Assembly (NCBI GenBank): GCA_965287045.1 | Contig: OZ336881.1 | Span: 52,514,001 to 52,578,000, forward strand | DNA: 64,000 nt | Direction of reading: 5' to 3' | Source: Carcharhinus amblyrhynchos | Lineage: Eukaryota | In this document: piece after piece, positions 1,481 through 60,589 of the stretch | Numbering within the stretch: position 1 is the stretch's first letter | Layout of the letters: each line of letters starts with the position of its first letter | The notes under the pieces: generated by a model | The model's database searches: none | Told to the model about the DNA's origin: nothing | What the model saw: only the letters and a program-made list of their open reading frames with translations | Made by a program: the position numbers and the translations under genes

Positions 1481-2817
1481 ATCCCGTTGTTCCTTCTTAT
1501 CGGAGGTCCAAGGTAGAGCTGCATAAGTAGCTCCCGTGCTTCAGTGAAGGCTGACAACAGGGAAGTGCTGAAATTCAAGAACCGACTTCCAAGAAATAAA
1601 GAATCACCTGTTACGCAGTGAGAGCAGATATTCAGAACAAGTGCTGTATCAGCCTCCCACCTAGACATGCCTGGAGCTCCTTAGTTTCACTGTTCAGAGG
1701 CTTCTCCACCTGAGAAACACTCTTCACTGTGCTCTCACCTGGTTGACCCTGACGAGTTGCAGACTGCTCGAGAAATACGTGTGCTGACTGCTAAAGGGAG
1801 AATGCTTTGATAAAACTTCAGTTAATTACTTTTTTTACGTATCACAATTACTTACCAGATAGCACCGCTTGTCTGTAAATCTAGAATCTGGATGGCATCA
1901 GGATCCCAATTCACTTCAGGGGGGTTTAACATCCTGTACACAACTGAACCTGCATTCCGTTGGCACTTCATTTTGCCACACAAACACAGTACTCTTATTT
2001 AATTAGACAGGAATCCAAAATTCAAAGTGGCTTGATTCGGCAAACATTGGCAAATGAGAACAAAACATGCAAAACAAAGTCCTTTAATGGTTTACAAACT
2101 TAGTTATATTATCCTGGCCACCTTACAGAATTTGCCTGAGTCCTATATTTAATCACATCTCAATATGATTGTCAGAATATGAATTTGTGCCAACATCAGT
2201 TACTGGCCAGAACAATGGAAGTAAAAATCATAAGCAGCCATGTTGACTATATCCCAGTACCAGTTTTTGGCCTGAACAATGGAACAATTCAAGCAGTATC
2301 ACTTAAACATTTGACATTGTCCAGGTCATCCTGTTCCCAGGATGCTTCATAGTACCATCAAGACAGCCATTATGTCAATCTTGAGGTTGAGCAAGGAGGA
2401 ACTCACTTCACTATGCATTTATGGGTATCAGGTGATACAAAGTCACAAAGAAAGGGTACACAAAATATCAAGGAACAGGTCAGAAATCACAGTGAAGCCA
2501 GAGGGACAACATCTACAGAGACCAAATTTCATTACCTCAGGTTTGCAAGAAATCACGTTGTAGGAATCTATCATACAATCATAATAGTTCACATATTATT
2601 GGTGTCTAATTAATTAACATGCTTTTGGACAACACAAAAGGAATCATGAGGAATTATTTAACTCTGCTTAAAACAATTCCTACCATATATGAATATTTTC
2701 CAGATAAAGCTCGCACAATAGTAGATTATCATTTCTATGCAAAATCTTGCAAGATTGTTAAAAATCCCTCACCATATTTACAAACATGTTTAATTTTAAT
2801 AAAACATGGATACTTAC

Positions 2818-2989
2818 AGAAAGTCTTATGAAGTATCTCGTCCCAGGTTCAAGTTGTCTCAGAGTGAAATCCACAAACAGCTTGGAGCTATTATACACCA
2901 CATCGCTGTTGTTCAAATTGTCTTCGCTGGTCGAAACATGTAGCAAGTAGTGTTCTAGGTGCCCATTAATTTTTGGAGGCTCTCGACAT
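2818..2989 (-). CDS. USH2A: Usherin exon (human exon 34 equivalent), 172 bp
   Basis: aaatttag|ATGTCGAG...AGACTTTCT|gtaagt; encodes (Q)CREPPKINGHLEHYLLHVSTSEDNLNNSDVVYNSSKLFVDFTLRQLEPGTRYFIRLS; phase 2-0 fits the previous exon. Confidence 0.94.
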
Positions 2990-3196
2990 CTAAATTTGTC
3001 AGAAAAATATAATTTACTGAGGCTCTAAATAGATGTGTAAACAATTAATTTATGGTTGGTCTGACGTCATTAGCTTATGCATAGAATTCTAAAGAGTTTA
3101 GTCAACTTATTTATATTCAATTATTGAATATTTTAGGAAACTTTATGATCAATTTTCACCTTGCTACCAACTCATCCTTAAATGTAAATGGGTCAT

Positions 3197-10304: not shown

Positions 10305-11291
10305 TTACCCCATTACCCTGTGACACTATGTGTTACTAACAAACCCAATAAAGGATTCAGAAGAAACATACTTGTTCAGAAAGTTGTGTGAATGTGTAAG
10401 TCGGTACCACATAAAGTAGCTGAGAAACCTGCATCCATGTTAAAGAATTGGGGCTGAAACATACAACAGCCTGTGCACAATAGAGCCTTGGGTGCATAAA
10501 AACCTTTCCTGAAAAATAGCCCGATGTAAATGTAAGGCCTGTCTGCCTAATTCACCAACCTGGTGCCATTATTTACAGCAATATATAGATTTGTTATTCA
10601 ATTAATAAAAATATGAACAATTCTGTTGCCTTAAAATCTCACATAATTTACGGGGTGTACTATACAATCCTATTAAATCCTATTATCTGTTGTAAAAATC
10701 CTAAATAATTTATAGCTTCTGCTATAGAATTCCATTAAATCCTATAATCCATAATAAAAATCCTATATGGTTTTCAGATAGCTTTTTATTAGCCTACAGA
10801 TTTATGGCAAGTATATCACTGGGATATATTTGGACAAGCTTAGTGATCGACTCCTTTGACTTTACAATTTCAAATGTTAGTTAACTGCAGGCTTTAGCCA
10901 TCCTGTGTCATCGTAAAACAAAAATTCTGCAGGAAATAAATAGATTTTTATTTAAATCCTGAAACAGACGTATTTCTTTCCCTTAAAATACGATGTTACT
11001 TAATAATTTCAGGGGAGGTGGAAGAGTGTTCCTTCTTAAATTTCAAAGATATCATAAACATCCCTTCAAAATATAGGTAGCTAACTTGGCTGCTTAACCC
11101 CAGTACTGATATTAAGTTGGCTTTTGAACAGCAAATGTTAATCAACAGTTCACTCTATTGTTAAACTAATCACTTTGATGCATTTAATCATGTAAAATTA
11201 AATTTTCTGTCACAAACTCCATCCTGATTGAATCCTCCAGAGAATTTTACATAACGCAGTAAATAAATGCCCTGCAGCAAAGGCTACTTAC

Positions 11292-11451
11292 TGTATATAT
11301 ACGCTTCTCGAGTCTAGAACAGTCAGGACCGGTGCATCAACGTAAGAAGGTGGCAGTTGTGCTGTGAACAAGGTGATCTGGGAACTGTTTGTACAGCCAA
11401 TGATTGTGCATGCTTCAAGCACAAACTGATACGCGGAGTAGGCTGCTAAAC
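11292..11451 (-). CDS. USH2A: Usherin exon (human exon 33 equivalent), 160 bp
   Basis: ttcatacag|GTTTAGCA...TATATACA|gtaagt; encodes (G)LAAYSAYQFVLEACTIIGCTNSSQITLFTAQLPPSYVDAPVLTVLDSRSVYI(Q); phase 1-2; not in the ORF track. Confidence 0.96.
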
Positions 11452-11619
11452 CTGTATGAAGAGATTATCCATTAGTAAATTACCACTTGCAGTTGAGCAC
11501 ACTAAAACAATTGCAGATGGCTTTCAATACTACCAGATTGCAATGAGGTTTCATTCCTCATTCTGATGTTCTTTATGTCAAACATATTATGGCCTATTCT
11601 TCCGAGGAGCGGCAGCCAT

Positions 11620-16969: not shown

Positions 16970-17060
16970 TCACCTGAAGAAGGAGCAACACTCTGAAAGC
17001 TGTTGCTACCAAATAAACTTGTTGGACTTTAACCTGGTGTTGTGAGACTGCTTACTTTGT
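16970..17060 (+). mobile_element. Penelope-derived terminal repeat with degenerate hammerhead motif
   Basis: tcac-CTGAAGA-a-ggagc-aac-actct-GAA-agct followed by the family tail aaataaac...ggactttaacctggtgttgtgagac. Confidence 0.75.
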
Positions 17061-19691: not shown

Positions 19692-19850
19692 ATGATGTAG
19701 AGATGCCGGCGTTGGACTGGGGTAAACACAGTATGAAGTCACACAACACCAGTTTAGAGTCCAACCAGTTTATTTGATAGTAATCTTACAAGCTTTTGGA
19801 AACGGTGTTCCTTCGTCAGGTGCGTGGAAGGTTCTGATCAGAGAAGGGCA
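19692..19850 (-). mobile_element. Penelope-derived terminal repeat with degenerate hammerhead motif
   Basis: gatgtagagatgccggcgttggactgggg family; minus strand gcac-CTGACGA-a-ggaac-accg-tttcc-AAA-agct (core GAA mutated). Confidence 0.75.
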
Positions 19851-30635: not shown

Positions 30636-31941
30636 CTCTGAAGCTTGGTCAGAATCAAGCTTTAAATAGCACAGCCCATTTATAATACTTCCTTTCTATC
30701 ACATGAGTTTAAGTTCTCTTCTTCTCAGGCTGTCTCCTCAACAGCTTTAGCAATAGTTATCTGCCCTCTTGAAACCCCAGTTCACAAGTCTCAGTGACAA
30801 ACCCTGATGTCCAGCTGGCAAAATGGAAAAAAAACTGTTAGGTACTCCAAATAAAATCCTGTCCAAATTCACAATTACAAGTGGGGTCTTTTGACACACA
30901 ATGTGGCATGCACAGCAATTTCCTTGTTTCCATCCTTCATGTTGAGCAGGAAGTTAGAGAAAGATATGGAGGGAGATTTACGTATTAACTGGCACAGAGG
31001 AAAATTTAAAAGCAAGTGTCGTGCATCCCAAATAGAATCTGTCTGATTTTCCTCCCATTTCTTTCAAACATCCTTTCTTTGCACTCCATCCAACTAATGC
31101 CTAAGTGGTAAATACAAAACTCCACCTCATGGTTTTCCAGATACTCTTTTAGATTACTTGGGCAGTCTGTGTAATTATTGTGATTTCATTATCGTTTGAT
31201 CACAATCTTTTTAACTCTGGCATCGCAAAAGAACATCTACTGCTCTGACATTTCAGCATTAAAGCTAAAGAAACTGATTACATGGCACAGTGAGCTGATG
31301 CTTAAATACTATGAAGTGGGTAGTTGCGAGTCATGTAAGCAATTTATCACGTTGCAAATTCCCATTCAACCATGCCTCAGTCTTCAGACTGTTCTTGGTA
31401 GAGAGGAGGGAAAAAATAGAAAGGAAGATCCATTCAGTTTTCAAACATCTTATAGAATTACTTAAGGAGGGTGAAAACTTGGGGATATCCTGTCTGCCAT
31501 GAAGTACCCATTGGGACCTATAGCATTGACCCCTCCAGGATTAAGGGGAGGCTCCCTCACTATCCCACTAAAATCAGATGCCTATGACATTAGAGAGATG
31601 CCCGGGTTCTTTCTGGAAAGACAAGAAAGATGTTTTCTGCACCTTTGTACGGGAGTCCATAAAATACATTCAAAAATATTAATTTTTACCTTCTAGCTTT
31701 AGACTATGACAGGGGCCTGGACTTCCATGGGGTAGGTCCCTATCTTACATTTTTTTTTATAGGTACCTTTCAGTACATCTAACCAAAAAAGCCAGTTCAA
31801 ATTAAGGCCAATCATGCCCCTCTCATGAGGAACAATGAGGAACCAGATCCAAGCTGACAAGACATTGCATCCTATCTTGGGCTCAATCAAACAAGATCCA
31901 AGCTGACAGGATGAGGCATTGCACTCCATCCCAGGCTTGAT

Positions 31942-40630: not shown

Positions 40631-42877
40631 GTGTTAACTCAAGAACTTAGAAAAGAGGCAGTCAGTTAAAAAACAAATGAATTCATTAATGATTTTCACA
40701 AATTCATTGGCTTATAACTTTTGAACTCAGGACATCATAACTGGGGTACACCCCAAAAATGGGTTGAGGAATTTCAAACTTCTGCTGGGCAAGAGTCCTG
40801 CAATGGGAACCATCCTGGAATATGATATAAATTGTGCACTTCATATGGCTCTGCTTTCTAGTATTAGCTATCCAATGAAGTTTGAAGAATCAAAACCACT
40901 TCTAAATTCTGGGTTACTCCCACTGAGCCTTCCCAAACCCACCACAAGATCCCCTCACTACCCCATTGACCTTTCCAAGACACTGCCCCACTCCCAATCC
41001 CCCAATTGATCCCGATTGCCCTACTGAAACCTAAAGGACTGCCCCCACACCACCAGGCCCAAAACTATATTCCCTGACAACCTTTTCCTGACTGCTTTCT
41101 TCACCTCTCTACCCCACCTACCTCTACACTGACCATCTCCCCTCCCCTAACCACTTCTACCTGTCACCCGCACAACCCCACCCACATCTACACCCATCCA
41201 ATTACCTTATAAACCCCACTGGTCCCTGGCTTCTTAAAGTGTCTGGACCTTTAAATTTACCTGCTTTTTGGCGGCTAATGCAGTAACAAAGGGCATGGTT
41301 TCCTTCCTTCCCACTTTCCTGCCCTCAACACAAGACCTCAGGAACCCACTAAACTACACTGTCCTTGCTCAGCCTGAGTCAGAAAGATGGGTGAGAATGG
41401 GGCAGCTTCACTTCCAGTTAAGTAGAAGCAGAATGGCAGTCTGACTCTGATTGCCATTCCATTGAAGATACAGGGCCAATTATCTTCTGATAGGTGTCAA
41501 TTTGGAGGCCTTGACAAGGTTCTGCACTGGTCAGCCCTGCTGCATGACAACAAAGGAGATAAAATGTAGCCTTAAAAGATCTTGATTTAGTGATCTGATA
41601 TTCCCTACACCAGCAACTTTGCTCAATTTTACGAAAAGTGAAAATAATATTAATGGTAGGTTATCTTCAAGCTTGGACACAATTATTCTTGGGTTTGAAC
41701 TGTCCTTTAAAAAATTATTTCATCTGACCAATCTAAAATATTTTAACAAATTCAGTAATTTGAATTTTCTGTTTTCAGAACACAAAATTATACATCACAG
41801 ATTTAAGTGCAAAACACAATGAATGGCATGCCTTAATGTTACTTTTGACAAAAGAGAAACAGCACTGCTATTTCATATATTGCATCCATTGCACAGTTCA
41901 GTAACTTTATAGTAAAGATATATTAAAGCAAAATAACTGCATCTTCAAACCTGGTTATTACAATATGAACACACAATATCAGTCTCAGTTCCACAACATC
42001 TGCATGGGGTTGAACTGCATCAATCTTGAATATAAACATCAAGAGGTGTCAGCACATTTTTCAGCTTGGAAGTTTCTCCATGATGAATACTCTACATGCT
42101 CTAGGTCAAAATTTAGTTACCCAAGGCAAGACCAAATGTCAATACCAGACTCTGCATATCACACTATCCCAGCACTTCATGAAAAAAAATCAATAGGCTC
42201 TGCTGTAGGTGAACTGTTAGCATGCAGTTTGTATTACTTCATGGTCCTATTAACGTCAATCTTTGGGATAAGCTTTCAAACAAGTGGCGCAGTTCAAGCA
42301 AATGTTTTTGAGATATGAAAATTTGAATATTAAAATAAATACATAAATTAGGAATGCAATGGAAAATATAATTACTTCCTGGATTTGACCTCATCTGCAG
42401 CGGCTTTGAAAATAAATCACATTATCCTATAAATTATGAGGCTTAAACTTTAATTCTTGTTGACAGCAATATTACTAAAGGTTGTAATTGCAGTGTGCAT
42501 GTAATTGTGTCTTGTTGGTCTACATGCAGTGCTGCATTCAAAGAAAGCATTGCTGTACGGATTGGAAGATCAAGGGGTAAATTCTAATTTTTATTGCGTG
42601 GACAAATTAACTAGCCGAATAGATCAACTGTCCATTGTTGAATCCAACCGATTTATGTTCCATTGATTTCAATGGAATGAGAATCAGGCATGTTCTACAA
42701 AGGGCGCTTAGTTGAATCCACCACCACTGCCCAGATAATCAAAATGAACACGCACCTCAAAATTTTTATTATGAATAAATAAAGCCTCCAGTTTGTTCAC
42801 TACAAAATAGAATAAGCTTGGGCATCTAAGCACTTGGATCAATGTGATATTTAGGAAAACACATAAAGACACTGCTG

Positions 42878-42990
42878 GGTTTGAGTTAGTAAAAAGTCTG
42901 ACAACACCAGGTTTTAGTCCAACCTATTTATTTGATAATATACTCGCAAGCTTTCGGGTTAGCCCCTTTGTCAGGTGAATGGAGAGTTCT
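42878..42990 (-). mobile_element. Penelope-derived terminal repeat with degenerate hammerhead motif
   Basis: Minus strand tcac-CTGACAA-a-gggg-ctaa-ccc-GAA-agct-t-gcga (42944-42978). Confidence 0.7.
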
Positions 42991-43492
42991 GCAGAATAAT
43001 ATCTTGAGAAGCCCACTGGACAGGATAGATATTCCTAAATCAAAGATTCATGTTAATATGAATGGCACATTCAGCAAGCAACTGAATGGAACTCTGATAA
43101 ATCATCAGACATGTGTATTTGCTGATTCTTATCCACTGTGAGTCTGAGCTCTAACCATATGCTGAACATTCGACTATAAAGCCATTTAATTAGCTATATC
43201 TAAATGTTATTTTTTAACCATGCAATTGTTTTCTTTAATACCTATTCCAATTTTTGGTTTCCATTTTTGCAATTTTATTGCAGTTTCTAACATATTTTGG
43301 ACCTTTCCATTTTTTGTCACTGTTTAAATTTAAAATGTTTTTTGTCTCTGAATAAAGAATCAAAAGATATTGGTAATTCCGGGGGGGTAGATAGTCAAAG
43401 TGATGTTTGGAGGGCTAAAGAGAGATGTGGCTTTGTATGGTGCAGCTCTATGAAAGACCGGAGTGAAGATAGGTGATAGAATGGTTAGTTAT

Positions 43493-43697
43493 GATGTGGA
43501 GATGCCAGCATTGGACTGGGGTAGGCACAATAAGAAGTCTTACAACATCAGGTTAAAGTCCAACAGGTTTATTTGGTATCATGAGCTTTCAGAGTGCTGC
43601 TCCTTCATCAGGTGACTCACCCTGATGAAGGAGCAGTGCTCCGAAAGCTCGTGATACTAAATAAACCTATTTGACTTTAACCTGGTGTTGTAGAGTT
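43493..43697. mobile_element. Palindromic Penelope-derived element with two head-to-head hammerhead motifs
   Basis: Arms 43542-43615 and 43617-43691 are near-perfect inverted repeats; 9-bp TSD GTTAGTTAT at 43484-43492 and 43698-43706. Confidence 0.85.
43617..43654 (+). ncRNA. Putative minimal type I hammerhead ribozyme
   Basis: tcac(c)-CTGATGA-a-ggagc-agt-gctcc-GAA-agct-c-gtga: stem I tcac/gtga with one extra C, intact core, 5-bp stem II, palindromic AGCT stem III, UC cleavage site. Confidence 0.7.
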
Positions 43698-44196
43698 GTT
43701 AGTTATCAGCAGCAACTGTTGTGATTATTTTTATCTCAAAATAATGTTAATATAAAAATGAGAGGGGTGAGTTTTTAATCAGCAAAGGAAACACTGAGTA
43801 TTGAAGTGGAAGTGCTATTGATTAGTGTTATGAGAAATGCAATAATTTACTGGAAGACTATAAGACGTGGGATCAGAAGCAGGCTGTTCGGCCCATCGAG
43901 TCTGCTCCACCAGTTAAGGAGATCATGACGGATCTGAAATGATAACCTCAACCCCATAACCCTTGTTTCCTTTACTGATTAAAGATTTCTGATGCAAATT
44001 GCCCGAAGTATATTGAATTGGAACATGAAATGATTACATTTTTGTAATCAGTAATAATGCCTTCTTTTCTGGGTATTTATTTCACCAAAATAATTTCAGA
44101 ATTCACACTCACTATTGCTTTAATCAATGTTGAATTTTTAAATTATAAATAGTTGGCTAATGATGTGAAGGTGTACATTTTCTGTGATGAACGCCA

Positions 44197-47340: not shown

Positions 47341-48458
47341 AAAAAATTATATATTGATTCCATCTTTGTAGTTGTTTCATGGCATGAGTAGTTTGATTAA
47401 AGAAGATAAGGAGCAAGAATTGACTATAAATTATAACAGACTGGATCAAAAGTAATTGATTTAAAAAAAGCTGCTTACTCTTCACACGAGTGTATTCAAT
47501 AATAACATAAACTATAATACTTGTCTTATTTCTCACCAATGTTATTTATTGAAAAAATGTAACACCTGATCACTGATCTAATTGATTTAAAAATGATTTT
47601 GGTGCATTTAAAGTCAAGTTGATTCCGGAGTGTTATTTTTATTCTGGGTTTAATTTCTTGTTAAAGTCACTCCATGGTTCCACTTAGGTATTCAAGGAAC
47701 AGTAGCCAAATTAGATTAAAAATGGTAATTACTCTATCACAGCACTGCAAAGTAAATCTATTATATGTTTCTATAGAAGAATCTGTTCCTTGGCACTAAA
47801 ACTTCGAAGTCATTTGCAGTTTTGAATGAAATTTATATGGCTGGGGTTGTGGTCGGCACTGTCTTCGGGGATATGCAGCATATTCAAGGCTATGTTTAGA
47901 CATCATGGCAAAATCGAAACCTATCCCAGTAAGCAGCAGAAGCAGTACAAATAATGAACTTGAAGGTTAAATAAAATGGCTTAAATAATGCGGTAAACTT
48001 GAATGTACTAAGAAGGCTTAGCAAAAAAAAAATACTTTGTCAGTTTAAGAAGCTCATGGAAATCAAGCATTTGATTTCCAATTTCATACTTTGCCATACA
48101 ATCAATTCTTTTTAGTCAGACTGTCTCTAGATTTACTTCTCTGCTGTAGTAAAATGAAGAAGCTTTCATTAATCTTTCAGATGCCTCATATTAACGACGA
48201 GGCTCTTGCATGAACAATGTAACAGCAATTAAAAAGCCCATTAATCTGCATTACAGCTATTAAAGATGCATGTCATTAAACGGTATCGAGTTTGATTCAT
48301 TTTCTCACCAAAAATGGAACAATTATGGTCTGGCAATGTACTTTGTCATCAAATTAGGTTGGAGTTTTCCAGCAAATGGCTTTGCAATTCTTTAGTTATT
48401 CACCTATTTTATTATTCATCACTGAAATGTGGAAGCTAAAACCTTCAAAATGTTCTAC

Positions 48459-48572
48459 CTTCTTCTGGTGTTGCAAGTTTCCATGTGCCTGCGCTTTCTG
48501 CACAGCCAGCCATAGTGCAGACAGTCAGTGTAATGCTATAATTTGTAAAAGGAATCAGGCCAGTCAAGTTTC
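48459..48572 (-). CDS. USH2A: Usherin exon (human exon 31 equivalent), 114 bp
   Basis: ctttatag|GAAACTTG...GAAGAAG|gtagaa; encodes (G)NLTGLIPFTNYSITLTVCTMAGCAESAGTWKLATPEE with the usherin CTxxGC motif. Confidence 0.95.
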
Positions 48573-48961
48573 CTATAAAGGGAACAAACAAGAATTGGCA
48601 AGTGTAAATTACCTTATTATGCAGAAATAACAGTTTAAAACAACCAAATTAAAATATTAAGTACGCAGCCTGCATAAATGCGTTAGCAACACACTTCTAT
48701 ATTTTGTGCAGCCTCATCAGAGAGTGTTTGGCCAGCATCTACTATAATCTGTTCCTCTTCATTATGTTAATCTGTGGGCGGAATGATTCTTGTCATCTTC
48801 ATGTAGCCCCATACAGCAACAGTAAACACCTTATCCTGTCCTTAATTGGACAGGTGTCTGTATCTGTGTCACCCAGCCTTTAATTCAATTAAGGCACAGT
48901 CTGCATTACACTCATTACACAATCATTTTCCTGGTTATTTTCATCAGTCTGCAGAGTTTAC

Positions 48962-57771: not shown

Positions 57772-57860
57772 TGATGTGGAGATGCCAGCGTTGGATTGGG
57801 GTAAACACAGTAAGAAGTCTGACAACACCAGGTTTAAGTCCAACCGATTTATTTGATAGT
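57772..57860 (-). mobile_element. Truncated Penelope-derived terminal repeat (ribozyme part missing)
   Basis: gatgtggagatgccagcgttggattggggtaaacacagtaagaagtctgacaacaccagg family sequence. Confidence 0.75.
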
Positions 57861-58520: not shown

Positions 58521-60260
58521 GGGAGATTACCCACTCAAAGCTGGGAGCTTCCCTTTGGGCCCCAGCGGGGATGGGGGTTTCTCCTTTTTGGGTATTCCAA
58601 CGGCCACAGAGGTGAAATGACTGCCTCCTCCATGACAACACCACGACCACCTGGCCCTGGAATCCTTTCATTCCAGGACCAGAAAGGAATGTCTCCTATC
58701 TGGCACTGGCATTCCTCCAACCCCACTTGCCCCTTTTCAAGGGCCCCTCAACCATTGACACACCATCTCCCTTAGGCATTAGCCTGTCCATGGGCCAGCA
58801 CTACAGTCCACCATCTTTAATTAAAAAGGGACACTTGTAGCAGCCACATAATTGGCCATTGGGGGGGGGGGGGGGGGCACATCCTGCTGTCAGCCTCAGC
58901 AGCAGGATTTTGGCTGTTTCCATAGAATTCCAGCCAAGGTTTCTTTTGTGAAAACATCAATATATGTACAGCTTTATCAAACATATTGTTTAATCCGATC
59001 ATTTGTCTTTCACTTAACTATAGTACAAGCTAGTCATTACTTTATCTCTATACTGCATGTTAAAAACATGTTTATGCCTGCAATAACATTACCACATAGT
59101 ATGTGCAATAAGTATTCAGTATTGTTCTATCTGTTAATTACAAGGGTCAAACATTCCATTCTGCAAAATAGTTATATCTCTCAGCATTATTACCAGTTTG
59201 GTGAATGAATATACTCACTAAAAGAACTGGGCAGTGTCTATATTTCTTTTGTTAAGCCTTGTACCAACTAAGCAGATTGTTTTAAATATAGCGTAATTGT
59301 CATTTCCAAGCCACTTAGTTCAGGGGTAATTAGGGGTGGGTAACAAATGTGGGCCTTGCCAATGAGCCCCACATGCCATGAATGAATAAATAACGAAAAA
59401 CAAGAATGAGAAGGCTGTGCTTTCAAATCCCAGTTCAAAGTTGTAAGTACATCATCAAAACTGGCATTTCAATGCAGTACTGGGGCAAGTTCTGAACAAT
59501 TAGGGTAGTCCCATTTTGCAAATGAGGTGTTATACTGGGGACCACCCACAATTTCAGGTGGACATGAAGCATCCCACATCACTATTTGAAGAAGGGTAGG
59601 AGATTTCTCAAAGTGGCCTGGTAAGTATTTACTCCCCTACGCCTACCCACCGCCCTCCAAACCCTACCACCACTACCACCACCACCCGCTCCGCCTCTCC
59701 CCGTCAAAACTTACACTACACACAAAATAAAATCTGCTCCTTTATTCCATTACAGTTTCTGGGGCCTTGCTGTGTGCAAATCTTTAAATTCATTCTTGGG
59801 ATATAACTGCCACTAACAAGGTCAGAATTCACTGCCCATTCCAAGTTGCCCTTTAAAAGATGGTGGTGGGTTTTGCTTTTGAATCACTGTAGTCCATCTG
59901 GTGAAGGTACAGTGGGGTCAGAATTTTGACAGCTCATTGCTGTGACAACAAGGCCATAAAATGTGACGAGCCATTCACAAGTCTACTGACTTCGCCGGAA
60001 ACGGAAAATCCACTGGCCGGAGGGACTGCAAAATTCTACCCTAGCTTGTGAGTTCCAGGATTTTGACCCAATGAAATTGAAGGAATGGGTGATATACATT
60101 CAAGTCAAGATCATATATAACATGGAGGCATGAAGATGGTGATTTTCCCAGGCATCTGTTTCCTTTGTCCTTTTGCATTGTCAATGCAAATCAGGAGATG
60201 TTGTTGAAGGTACCTTAGTGAATTGTTCTCATGCAATTGGCTGCTGCATTTTCCAAATTA

Positions 60261-60589
60261 GGTTAAAGTTCAACAGGTTTGTTTGGTATCACGAGCATTC
60301 AGATCACTGCTCTTTCATCAGGTGAGTGGCGGTTTGCGGTGTCGGTGGTAGCCATAAGGTGGAGATGCTGGCGTTGGACTGGGGTGGGCACAGTAAGAAG
60401 TCTCACAACAGCTGGTCAAAGCCTAACAGGTGTATTTGGTATCACAAGCTTTCAGAGCACTGCTCCTTCATCAGATGAGTCTGCCTATTGAAGGAGCAGC
60501 GCTCCAAAAGCTCATGATACCAGATAAACCTGGTGTTTTGAGACCTCTTACCATGCCCATCCCAGTCCAATGCCTGCATCTCCATGTTT
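60261..60589. mobile_element. Penelope-derived array: two tandem minus-strand units plus one inverted unit, each with a hammerhead motif
   Basis: Motifs at 60289-60325 (-), 60442-60478 (-) and about 60481-60517 (+); flanked by TTTTCCAAATTA / TTTTCTAAATTA (11 of 12 identical). Confidence 0.8.
60442..60478 (-). ncRNA. Putative minimal type I hammerhead ribozyme (sense strand of USH2A intron)
   Basis: tcat-CTGATGA-a-ggagc-agt-gctct-GAA-agct-t-gtga: core intact, stems I and II closed by G-U wobbles, UU cleavage site. Confidence 0.6.

Follow-up and report, generated by a model that had tools for sequence, protein, structure and literature searches.

A palindrome with two hammerhead motifs in Carcharhinus amblyrhynchos as a probable head-to-head insertion of Penelope-like element ends

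Architecture of the locus

The window analyzed here, a stretch of 64,000 nucleotides from Carcharhinus amblyrhynchos (assembly GCA_965287045.1, contig OZ336881.1, positions 52,514,001 to 52,578,000), harbors a compact unit in which two inverted arms, each carrying a minimal type I hammerhead motif, are enclosed by a target-site duplication (TSD). Its features, in window positions, are the following.

43484..43492 (+): left copy of the TSD, exact over 9 nt and possibly reaching to 43477; its final two bases also fit the long end of a Penelope-like element (PLE)
43493..43530 (-): unpaired PLE tail of 38 nt, ending where full elements have the ORF start codon
43493..43615 (-): long-tail arm, a PLE pseudo-LTR (pLTR) that reads in sense along the minus strand, inferred to be that of the host pre-mRNA
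43579..43615 (-): decayed minimal type I hammerhead with its core at 43611-43605 and three CpG-type changes; predicted cut after 43583
43612..43621 (no strand): junction GTGA-C-TCAC plus one additional C, a type more frequent than any other, located at the element's putative transcription start
43615..43697 (+): short, tail-less arm, an inverted second pLTR copy; right end at 43690-43697
43617..43654 (+): minimal type I hammerhead, core and stem II intact, stem I misregistered by C43621; cleavage predicted after 43650
43698..43706 (+): right copy of the TSD, exact over 9 nt

A preliminary description, made from the letters alone, had reported a 205-bp palindrome with arms around one central base, an exact 9-bp duplication and two hammerhead motifs. 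All of these elements are present, and the palindrome lies far beyond chance, since the minus-strand fold of the unit reaches -113.7 kcal/mol (z -15.0) and none of 200 shuffles was equally stable. The geometry had to be amended. Inverted arms were found at 43541-43612 and 43621-43692 (72 nt, 89% complementary) with the center at C43616, but the register is shifted by an additional C at 43621; an ungapped 74-nt comparison around 43616 matches at just 21 of 74 positions, and with one gap allowed the inverted repeat spans 43531-43701 at 86%. The 38 nt at 43493-43530 have no pairing partner, so the unit is better described as a tail plus a hairpin than as a 205-bp palindrome. The duplicated word GTTAGTTAT occurs exactly at 43484-43492 and again at 43698-43706 (9 nt), yet it is embedded in a 16-nt match (43477-43492 and 43691-43706, 14/16 identical), and its edges overlap the PLE's own ends, which places the TSD at 9-16 nt and the right boundary at 43690-43697. 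An AATAAA is located within each arm (43660-65 on the plus and 43568-73 on the minus strand), and at 43774-43983, 80 bp to the right of the palindrome, a 20-nt inverted repeat (95%) surrounds 170 nt of a high-copy repeat.

Hammerhead motifs of this copy

The layout reported earlier for the right arm (+) was recovered as TCAC (43617-20), the additional C, CTGATGA (43622-28), a bulged A, GGAGC/GCTCC (43630-42), GAAA (43643-46), GCT, C17 (43650) and GTGA, save that stem I is misregistered because of C43621, which leaves one of its four pairs in register. The left-arm motif on the opposite strand (core 43611-43605) likewise shows the CpG-type decay ascribed to it, with changes at 43595, 43591 and 43582, and it is further damaged, its first stem I pair being a C-A and its 10.1-11.1 pair a G-U. 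Stem I next to the core is broken in both hammerheads. The idea that the long hairpin competes with ribozyme folding agrees with the prediction, in which the hairpin abolishes the ribozyme fold on both strands, the pairing probability of stem II being about 0 in full-transcript folding of either strand. Cofolding of arm dimers, which is uninformative here, gave an active dimer for no arm tested, one intact arm included. The covariance-model search that had been suggested, carried out on the unit with Rfam, left the hammerhead model unmatched and returned generic sub-threshold hairpin matches only; mir-1597 and bantam, whose scores are far below the gathering scores, were rejected as such. Long perfect hairpins of this class can be mistaken for MITEs or microRNA precursors, the Rfam miRNA matches being sub-threshold. 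The hammerhead of this copy is likely not under selection, and the unit likely has no function today.

Identity of the arms

The unit drew 4,430 candidates in the genome, and the best 30 loci have its long end. Read on the minus strand, the long end leads directly into an ATG and an ORF; among the 8 loci having the ORF-start motif, 6 have the ORF after the long end (five directly, one past an internal deletion). The 506-aa frame of locus L173 matches Pfam RVT_1 (E 1e-9) and, under the curated cut-off with motifs visible, GIY-YIG (E 5e-4), the latter preceded by a CX4CxxC linker (CHSNLCKTC). A single ORF with RT and, at its C terminus, a GIY-YIG domain is hence linked to this terminal sequence. 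Direct plus inverted pLTRs were observed at L169, L035, L176 and L177, of which L169 preserves a whole, though decayed, element (inverted short pLTR, pLTR, ORF, 3' UTR, pLTR). In the 2.92-Gb genome a 27-mer taken from the arm has 31,467 exact occurrences (control 0), which sets the family size at 31,467 arms at least.

These results bear out the earlier assignment of the motifs to PLE-type minimal type I hammerheads, the arms being a PLE pLTR with the RT and GIY-YIG ORF at its long end, and the proposal that PLE enzymes mobilized the unit, whose long and short ends and TSD are those of PLE insertions. The unit very probably consists of two head-to-head hammerhead-bearing pLTRs of an abundant endonuclease-positive (EN+) PLE, likely a single old insertion and likely functionless at present; this reading draws on arm identity, ORF linkage, the long and short ends, the TSD, variable centers, shared arm variants and decay. 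The C-terminal GIY-YIG after a CX2-5CxxC linker resembles that of the Neptune/Nematis EN+ PLEs as presented in PMC8557442, which makes that clade a candidate, whereas the microsatellite target preference of the latter is not evident, by inspection, in the TSDs of the sampled arms.

Several further members of the family were encountered. L173, L176, L177 and L178 represent a young subfamily with RT-to-endonuclease frames open for about 500 aa, situated in kilobase palindromes. In L061, L068, L088 and L135 an internally deleted PLE has about 95 nt of the ORF start fused to the 3' UTR via a short common word, a deletion that recurs because the first 4 Mb of contig 1 has several duplicated segments. 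Four arms that stand alone in the window, at 16970-17054, 19694-19825, 42875-42991 and 57773-57858, belong to further subfamilies of this PLE, the one at 42875-42991, 550 bp from the palindrome, having a G/C-rich stem II variant. The stretch 60257-60584 displays the full architecture in miniature, namely an inverted long-tail arm (with a 15-nt deletion), a sense arm, 27 nt of the ORF and a second direct arm, which begins at the same CACTCACC junction.

Insertion form of the family

The arm sample was drawn blind to the upstream sequence and covers the window, 20 randomly chosen 10-kb stretches and 70 loci selected with the 27-mer, most of the arms coming from the first 8 Mb of contig 1, a contig holding duplicated segments. 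After the first removal of duplicates 120 arms remained, from which a further 6 were excluded, 2 as duplicates and 4 because they lay at a locus edge or did not align. The 3' ends of the resulting 114 arms are bimodal, with 46 at the ATG, 59 at 26-46 nt before it and 9 elsewhere. Seventy of these arms make up 35 candidate head-to-head pairs within 4 kb, and a TSD score of at least 8 was reached by 18 of the 35 pairs, compared with 0.3% of mismatched controls. All 18 TSD-bearing pairs, this copy among them, combine a long with a short end, their cores lying 46-2,040 bp apart. A second set, taken as the first 40 of 1,223 close pairs with 7 dropped for an unaligned arm, gave 26 of 33 pairs with a long and a short end and 21 of 33 with a TSD of 9-15 bp. 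The head-to-head pair is the family's normal insertion form, ranging from less than 200 bp to more than 3 kb, almost always with one long and one short end and a TSD of 9-15 bp; the palindromes of L176 and L177 extend into the RT region. The short end of the palindromes is the same as that of solo and kilobase-size insertions, and the loose ends seen in four related organisms, at 43491-92 and 43527-31, match these two end positions. At L168:1358-2156, L162:2533-3500 and L077:923-1500 the head-to-head arms are separated by 580-970 bp that cannot be aligned to the PLE 3' end and would be either captured DNA or a later insertion; the arm pairs of L168 and L162 sit inside a TSD.

This insertion architecture is already published, and the locus itself is ordinary. 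PMC3846280 (Pen2a_Av) and PMC8557442 describe EN+ PLE units with head-to-head pLTRs, a TSD of 9-10 bp, a 30-40 bp tail on one arm, a palindromic junction and a TATA-like plus Inr-like motif in the pLTR; a tail of 30-40 bp on one end only, together with a TSD of variable length, was also found here. In contrast with units of the Pen2a_Av type, this unit consists of only two pLTR ends without an ORF, and thousands of copies permit junction statistics. Opposite-strand hammerhead pairs 100-700 bp apart have previously been noted in Schistosoma, according to PMC4209133. A literature search, with most subscription journals and Repbase outside it, turned up no publication on PLE palindromes of sharks or on the statistics of PLE junctions. 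Insertions of this class are relevant to how the inverted ends of PLEs are formed and to whether minimal PLE hammerheads cut in vivo, two questions that tens of thousands of arms in one genome make countable.

Formation of the palindromes

The two arms of each palindrome were compared in 61 palindromes of 78 loci, the rest having an arm shorter than 70 nt, an unparsed center or a duplicate. At subfamily sites the arms are concordant in 52 of 60 and in 48 of 59 comparisons, where 27.7 and 28.2 would be expected, and they have 28 rare variants in common, compared with 5.2 in shuffles (maximum 16 in 1,000). Judged from these sequences, each palindrome likely arose, when it inserted, from a single template lineage; the shared variants could also stem from gene conversion between the arms after insertion. 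Two different RNA templates per palindrome were considered unneeded, the arm discordance of 8 in 60 fitting later mutation. The arms of this copy diverge by 12.7% from each other, in keeping with the set (10.5% outside CpG), and by 6-8% from the majority (set mean 10.2%).

The mechanism that we slightly favor starts with cleavage of both target strands by the PLE protein, at cuts about 9-15 bp apart. Each of the two ends would prime complementary DNA on RNA of the same kind, one start lying by the ATG and the other about 35 nt upstream, and both cDNAs would extend toward the RNA 5' end, presumably 6-8 nt before the hammerhead core, where their ends would be united by end-joining; the hammerhead would be a passenger of the pLTR, selected in active elements and not in this copy. 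The long and short ends within one TSD, the upstream reach of the arms (long arm further in 14, short arm in 13, ties in 4; n=31) and the common fillers fit priming on both strands followed by end-joining. According to PMC11167929, the protein of the anole PLE PAc Poseidon, a predicted dimer, cuts the two strands in vitro and extends both of them, and two internal RT starts define the tail. The anole element differs in belonging to another clade, Poseidon, with its hammerhead across the ATG, and in the RNA-seq of that study its hammerhead cut site had no reads that began or ended there.

A credible but less probable route is self-priming, in which a single cDNA copies itself from a folded-back 3' end and the endonuclease then trims one tail by about 35 nt. 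Fold-back with trimming predicts much the same as double priming. It would account for the rare variants common to both arms, for short inverted fillers at many junctions and for the TG that, counted by eye, precedes ACTCAC in 35 of 56 rows with a G there; moreover, self-priming is preferred for rotifer PLEs in PMC3846280, and Craig 2021 attributes the tail to endonuclease resolution. It sits less easily with the finding that either arm may extend further upstream and with junctions that are mostly asymmetric with fillers rather than clean loops, and a first strand with the short start needs an additional step to template the longer tail.

A proposal that the palindrome is an independent noncoding ribozyme unit, that is, a non-autonomous family whose 205-nt hairpin RNA is transcribed and re-inserted whole by PLE enzymes, is improbable and already largely refuted. 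Among 1,223 pairs with 0-30 nt between two exact core 9-mers (control 1), a spacing of 7 nt, that of this copy minus its additional C, is the mode with 190 pairs (15.5% of the 0-30 range), and the 30 best matches mostly have the same center besides the same long end, but they were picked by likeness to this copy. The remaining 84.5% have other spacings, so the variable center that had been named as an argument against such a family is largely what was found, yet the 7-nt center does recur. The copies with the 7-nt gap belong to at least four subfamily types with matching arms and occur in both polarities, the short end is identical to that of solo and kilobase-size insertions, and pairs of this architecture reach more than 3 kb; neither a fixed center nor a fixed polarity nor arm-specific fixed variants were observed. 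A modal center in several subfamilies and both polarities, with variants matching between arms, argues that palindromes are rebuilt at each insertion rather than copied as a family, and the strong over-representation of the 7-nt center may reflect some re-copying.

Hammerhead variation across the family

Eighty arms reach stem I, and 61 were parsed by a pattern that requires the core, so the invariance of the core counts for nothing as evidence. At H17 the parsed arms have A in 27, U in 23, C in 9 and G in only 2. The covariation asked after in the preliminary description was seen in stem II, where compensatory swaps (A-U/G-C in 10 sequences, G-C/A-U in 11) and 24 double-change cells against 9.5 expected (0 of 500 shuffles) were counted, relatedness inflating these counts and 2 of 5 measures, those counting pairs or types, not exceeding shuffles; stem I, 84.6% paired, shows changes on one side only. 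Since stem II covaries across subfamilies, the motif is likely selected in active PLE lineages, and it fits the minimal PLE hammerhead of PMC4209133, which has a 4-bp helix I, an unpaired base 9/10.1, G10.1-C11.1 and a palindromic AGCU helix III. Helix II has 4-5 bp here and 7-8 bp there, and this copy is damaged. Non-LTR retrozymes (PMC7229834; bioRxiv 10.64898/2026.07.22.740005) are also non-coding, hammerhead-bearing and PLE-related, but they form head-to-tail tandem repeats giving circular RNAs; such tandem units are absent at this locus, and with the head-to-head arrangement one transcript holds one sense ribozyme only. In vivo evidence for minimal PLE hammerheads is absent from Cervera 2014, and Frangieh 2024 did not find reads at the hammerhead cut site.

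Position of the junctions

The 5' ends of the arms concentrate just before stem I, with 24 of 114 at -8..0 from C3 (2.7 per nt), compared with 1.1 per nt at -20..-9 and 0.2 at -60..-21; among close pairs the modal end is -6 (13 of 66 arms). A TATA-like run occurs about 29 nt upstream of the A at the -6 junction, as a TATA-like plus Inr-like motif does in the rotifer pLTR (PMC3846280), so it is plausible that the peak marks the putative transcription start of the element. The predicted cut site was addressed in the first 50 of 468 pairs centered further in, which yielded 78 arms with at least 5 templated bases. Relative to the predicted cut, 20 of the 78 starts lie at 0 to -2, whereas the intervals +1 to +3 and -3 to -5 hold 6 and 7, respectively; simulating a true start at position 0 gives this same spread. 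On the other side, 15 starts form a second peak at +4, and in the unbiased set just 3 arms end at 0/-1. These counts hint at a junction excess at the predicted ribozyme cut site, weaker than that at the putative transcription start. Of 97 non-C rows, read by eye with four duplicate rows entered only once, 56 have a G before ACTCAC, as have 8 of 13 arms that end at -6. This common G may derive from a cap, but it is confounded: G also precedes about 40% of other breakpoints, and the partner arm or microhomology explains many ACTCAC cases.

Tentatively, the junctions could be read as a fossil map of PLE RNA 5' ends, on which both-strand-primed cDNAs ran off at a capped start immediately ahead of the hammerhead or at the hammerhead cut site, and many such footprints may mark where PLE RNA begins and is cut. 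With an added C, two ends of cDNA could anneal as GAGTC/GAGTC, giving the modal center in both polarities. If true, the junction map would supply genomic evidence both of double priming and of germ-line cleavage by PLE hammerheads.

Host context and age

Minus-strand FN3-type exons with AG/GT borders lie on both sides of the unit, at about 11291-11450 and about 48459-48572 (within the FN3 stretches 11291-11464 and 48448-48648), so the unit is likely intronic. Pfam fn3 matches were obtained at 2761-3024 (-, E 4e-5) and in L238 (E 1e-16), and a Pfam search of the 150 longest of 284 unmasked ORFs in the window gave 1 match. The FN3 exons of the window and of L238, L242, L243 and L244 would form one large minus-strand gene of at least 250 kb. 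We take this gene, by its motifs, to be usherin-like; a search for its identity gave no match among solved structures and no homologue, only Sidekick at 29%. The inferred pre-mRNA strand would carry the more decayed hammerhead, and the antisense pLTR at 43610-43622 (-), at the hairpin apex, reads on that strand as what we assume to be a consensus 5' splice donor of the AG/GTGAGT type.

That the hairpin is kept to shield the host pre-mRNA from cleavage, as had been suggested, or for another host role (dsRNA editing, small RNA), is very improbable: the unit does lie between minus-strand FN3 exons, its stem II is wholly sequestered and its left junction is present in 5 of 7 other organisms, but stem I is broken in both hammerheads, the arms have diverged like neutral DNA (12.7%), unpaired host-sense arms occur nearby (19694-19825, 42875-42991), and single minimal motifs were without cleavage in vitro in PMC4209133.

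The sequences suggest that the insertion is likely old. In 5 of 7 other organisms orthologous contigs cross the left flank into the element with at most 33 differences in 513 nt, entering it by 20-23 nt only, which is under the 31-nt bridging rule. An empty site sought in the contigs of these organisms was not found, and no contig joined across the unit. The contigs that leave at 43480 also begin at 43389 and resemble a paralogous repeat; three related organisms have a separate low-copy stretch to which window 43389-43480 matches, so the insertion adjoins or sits in another old repeat.
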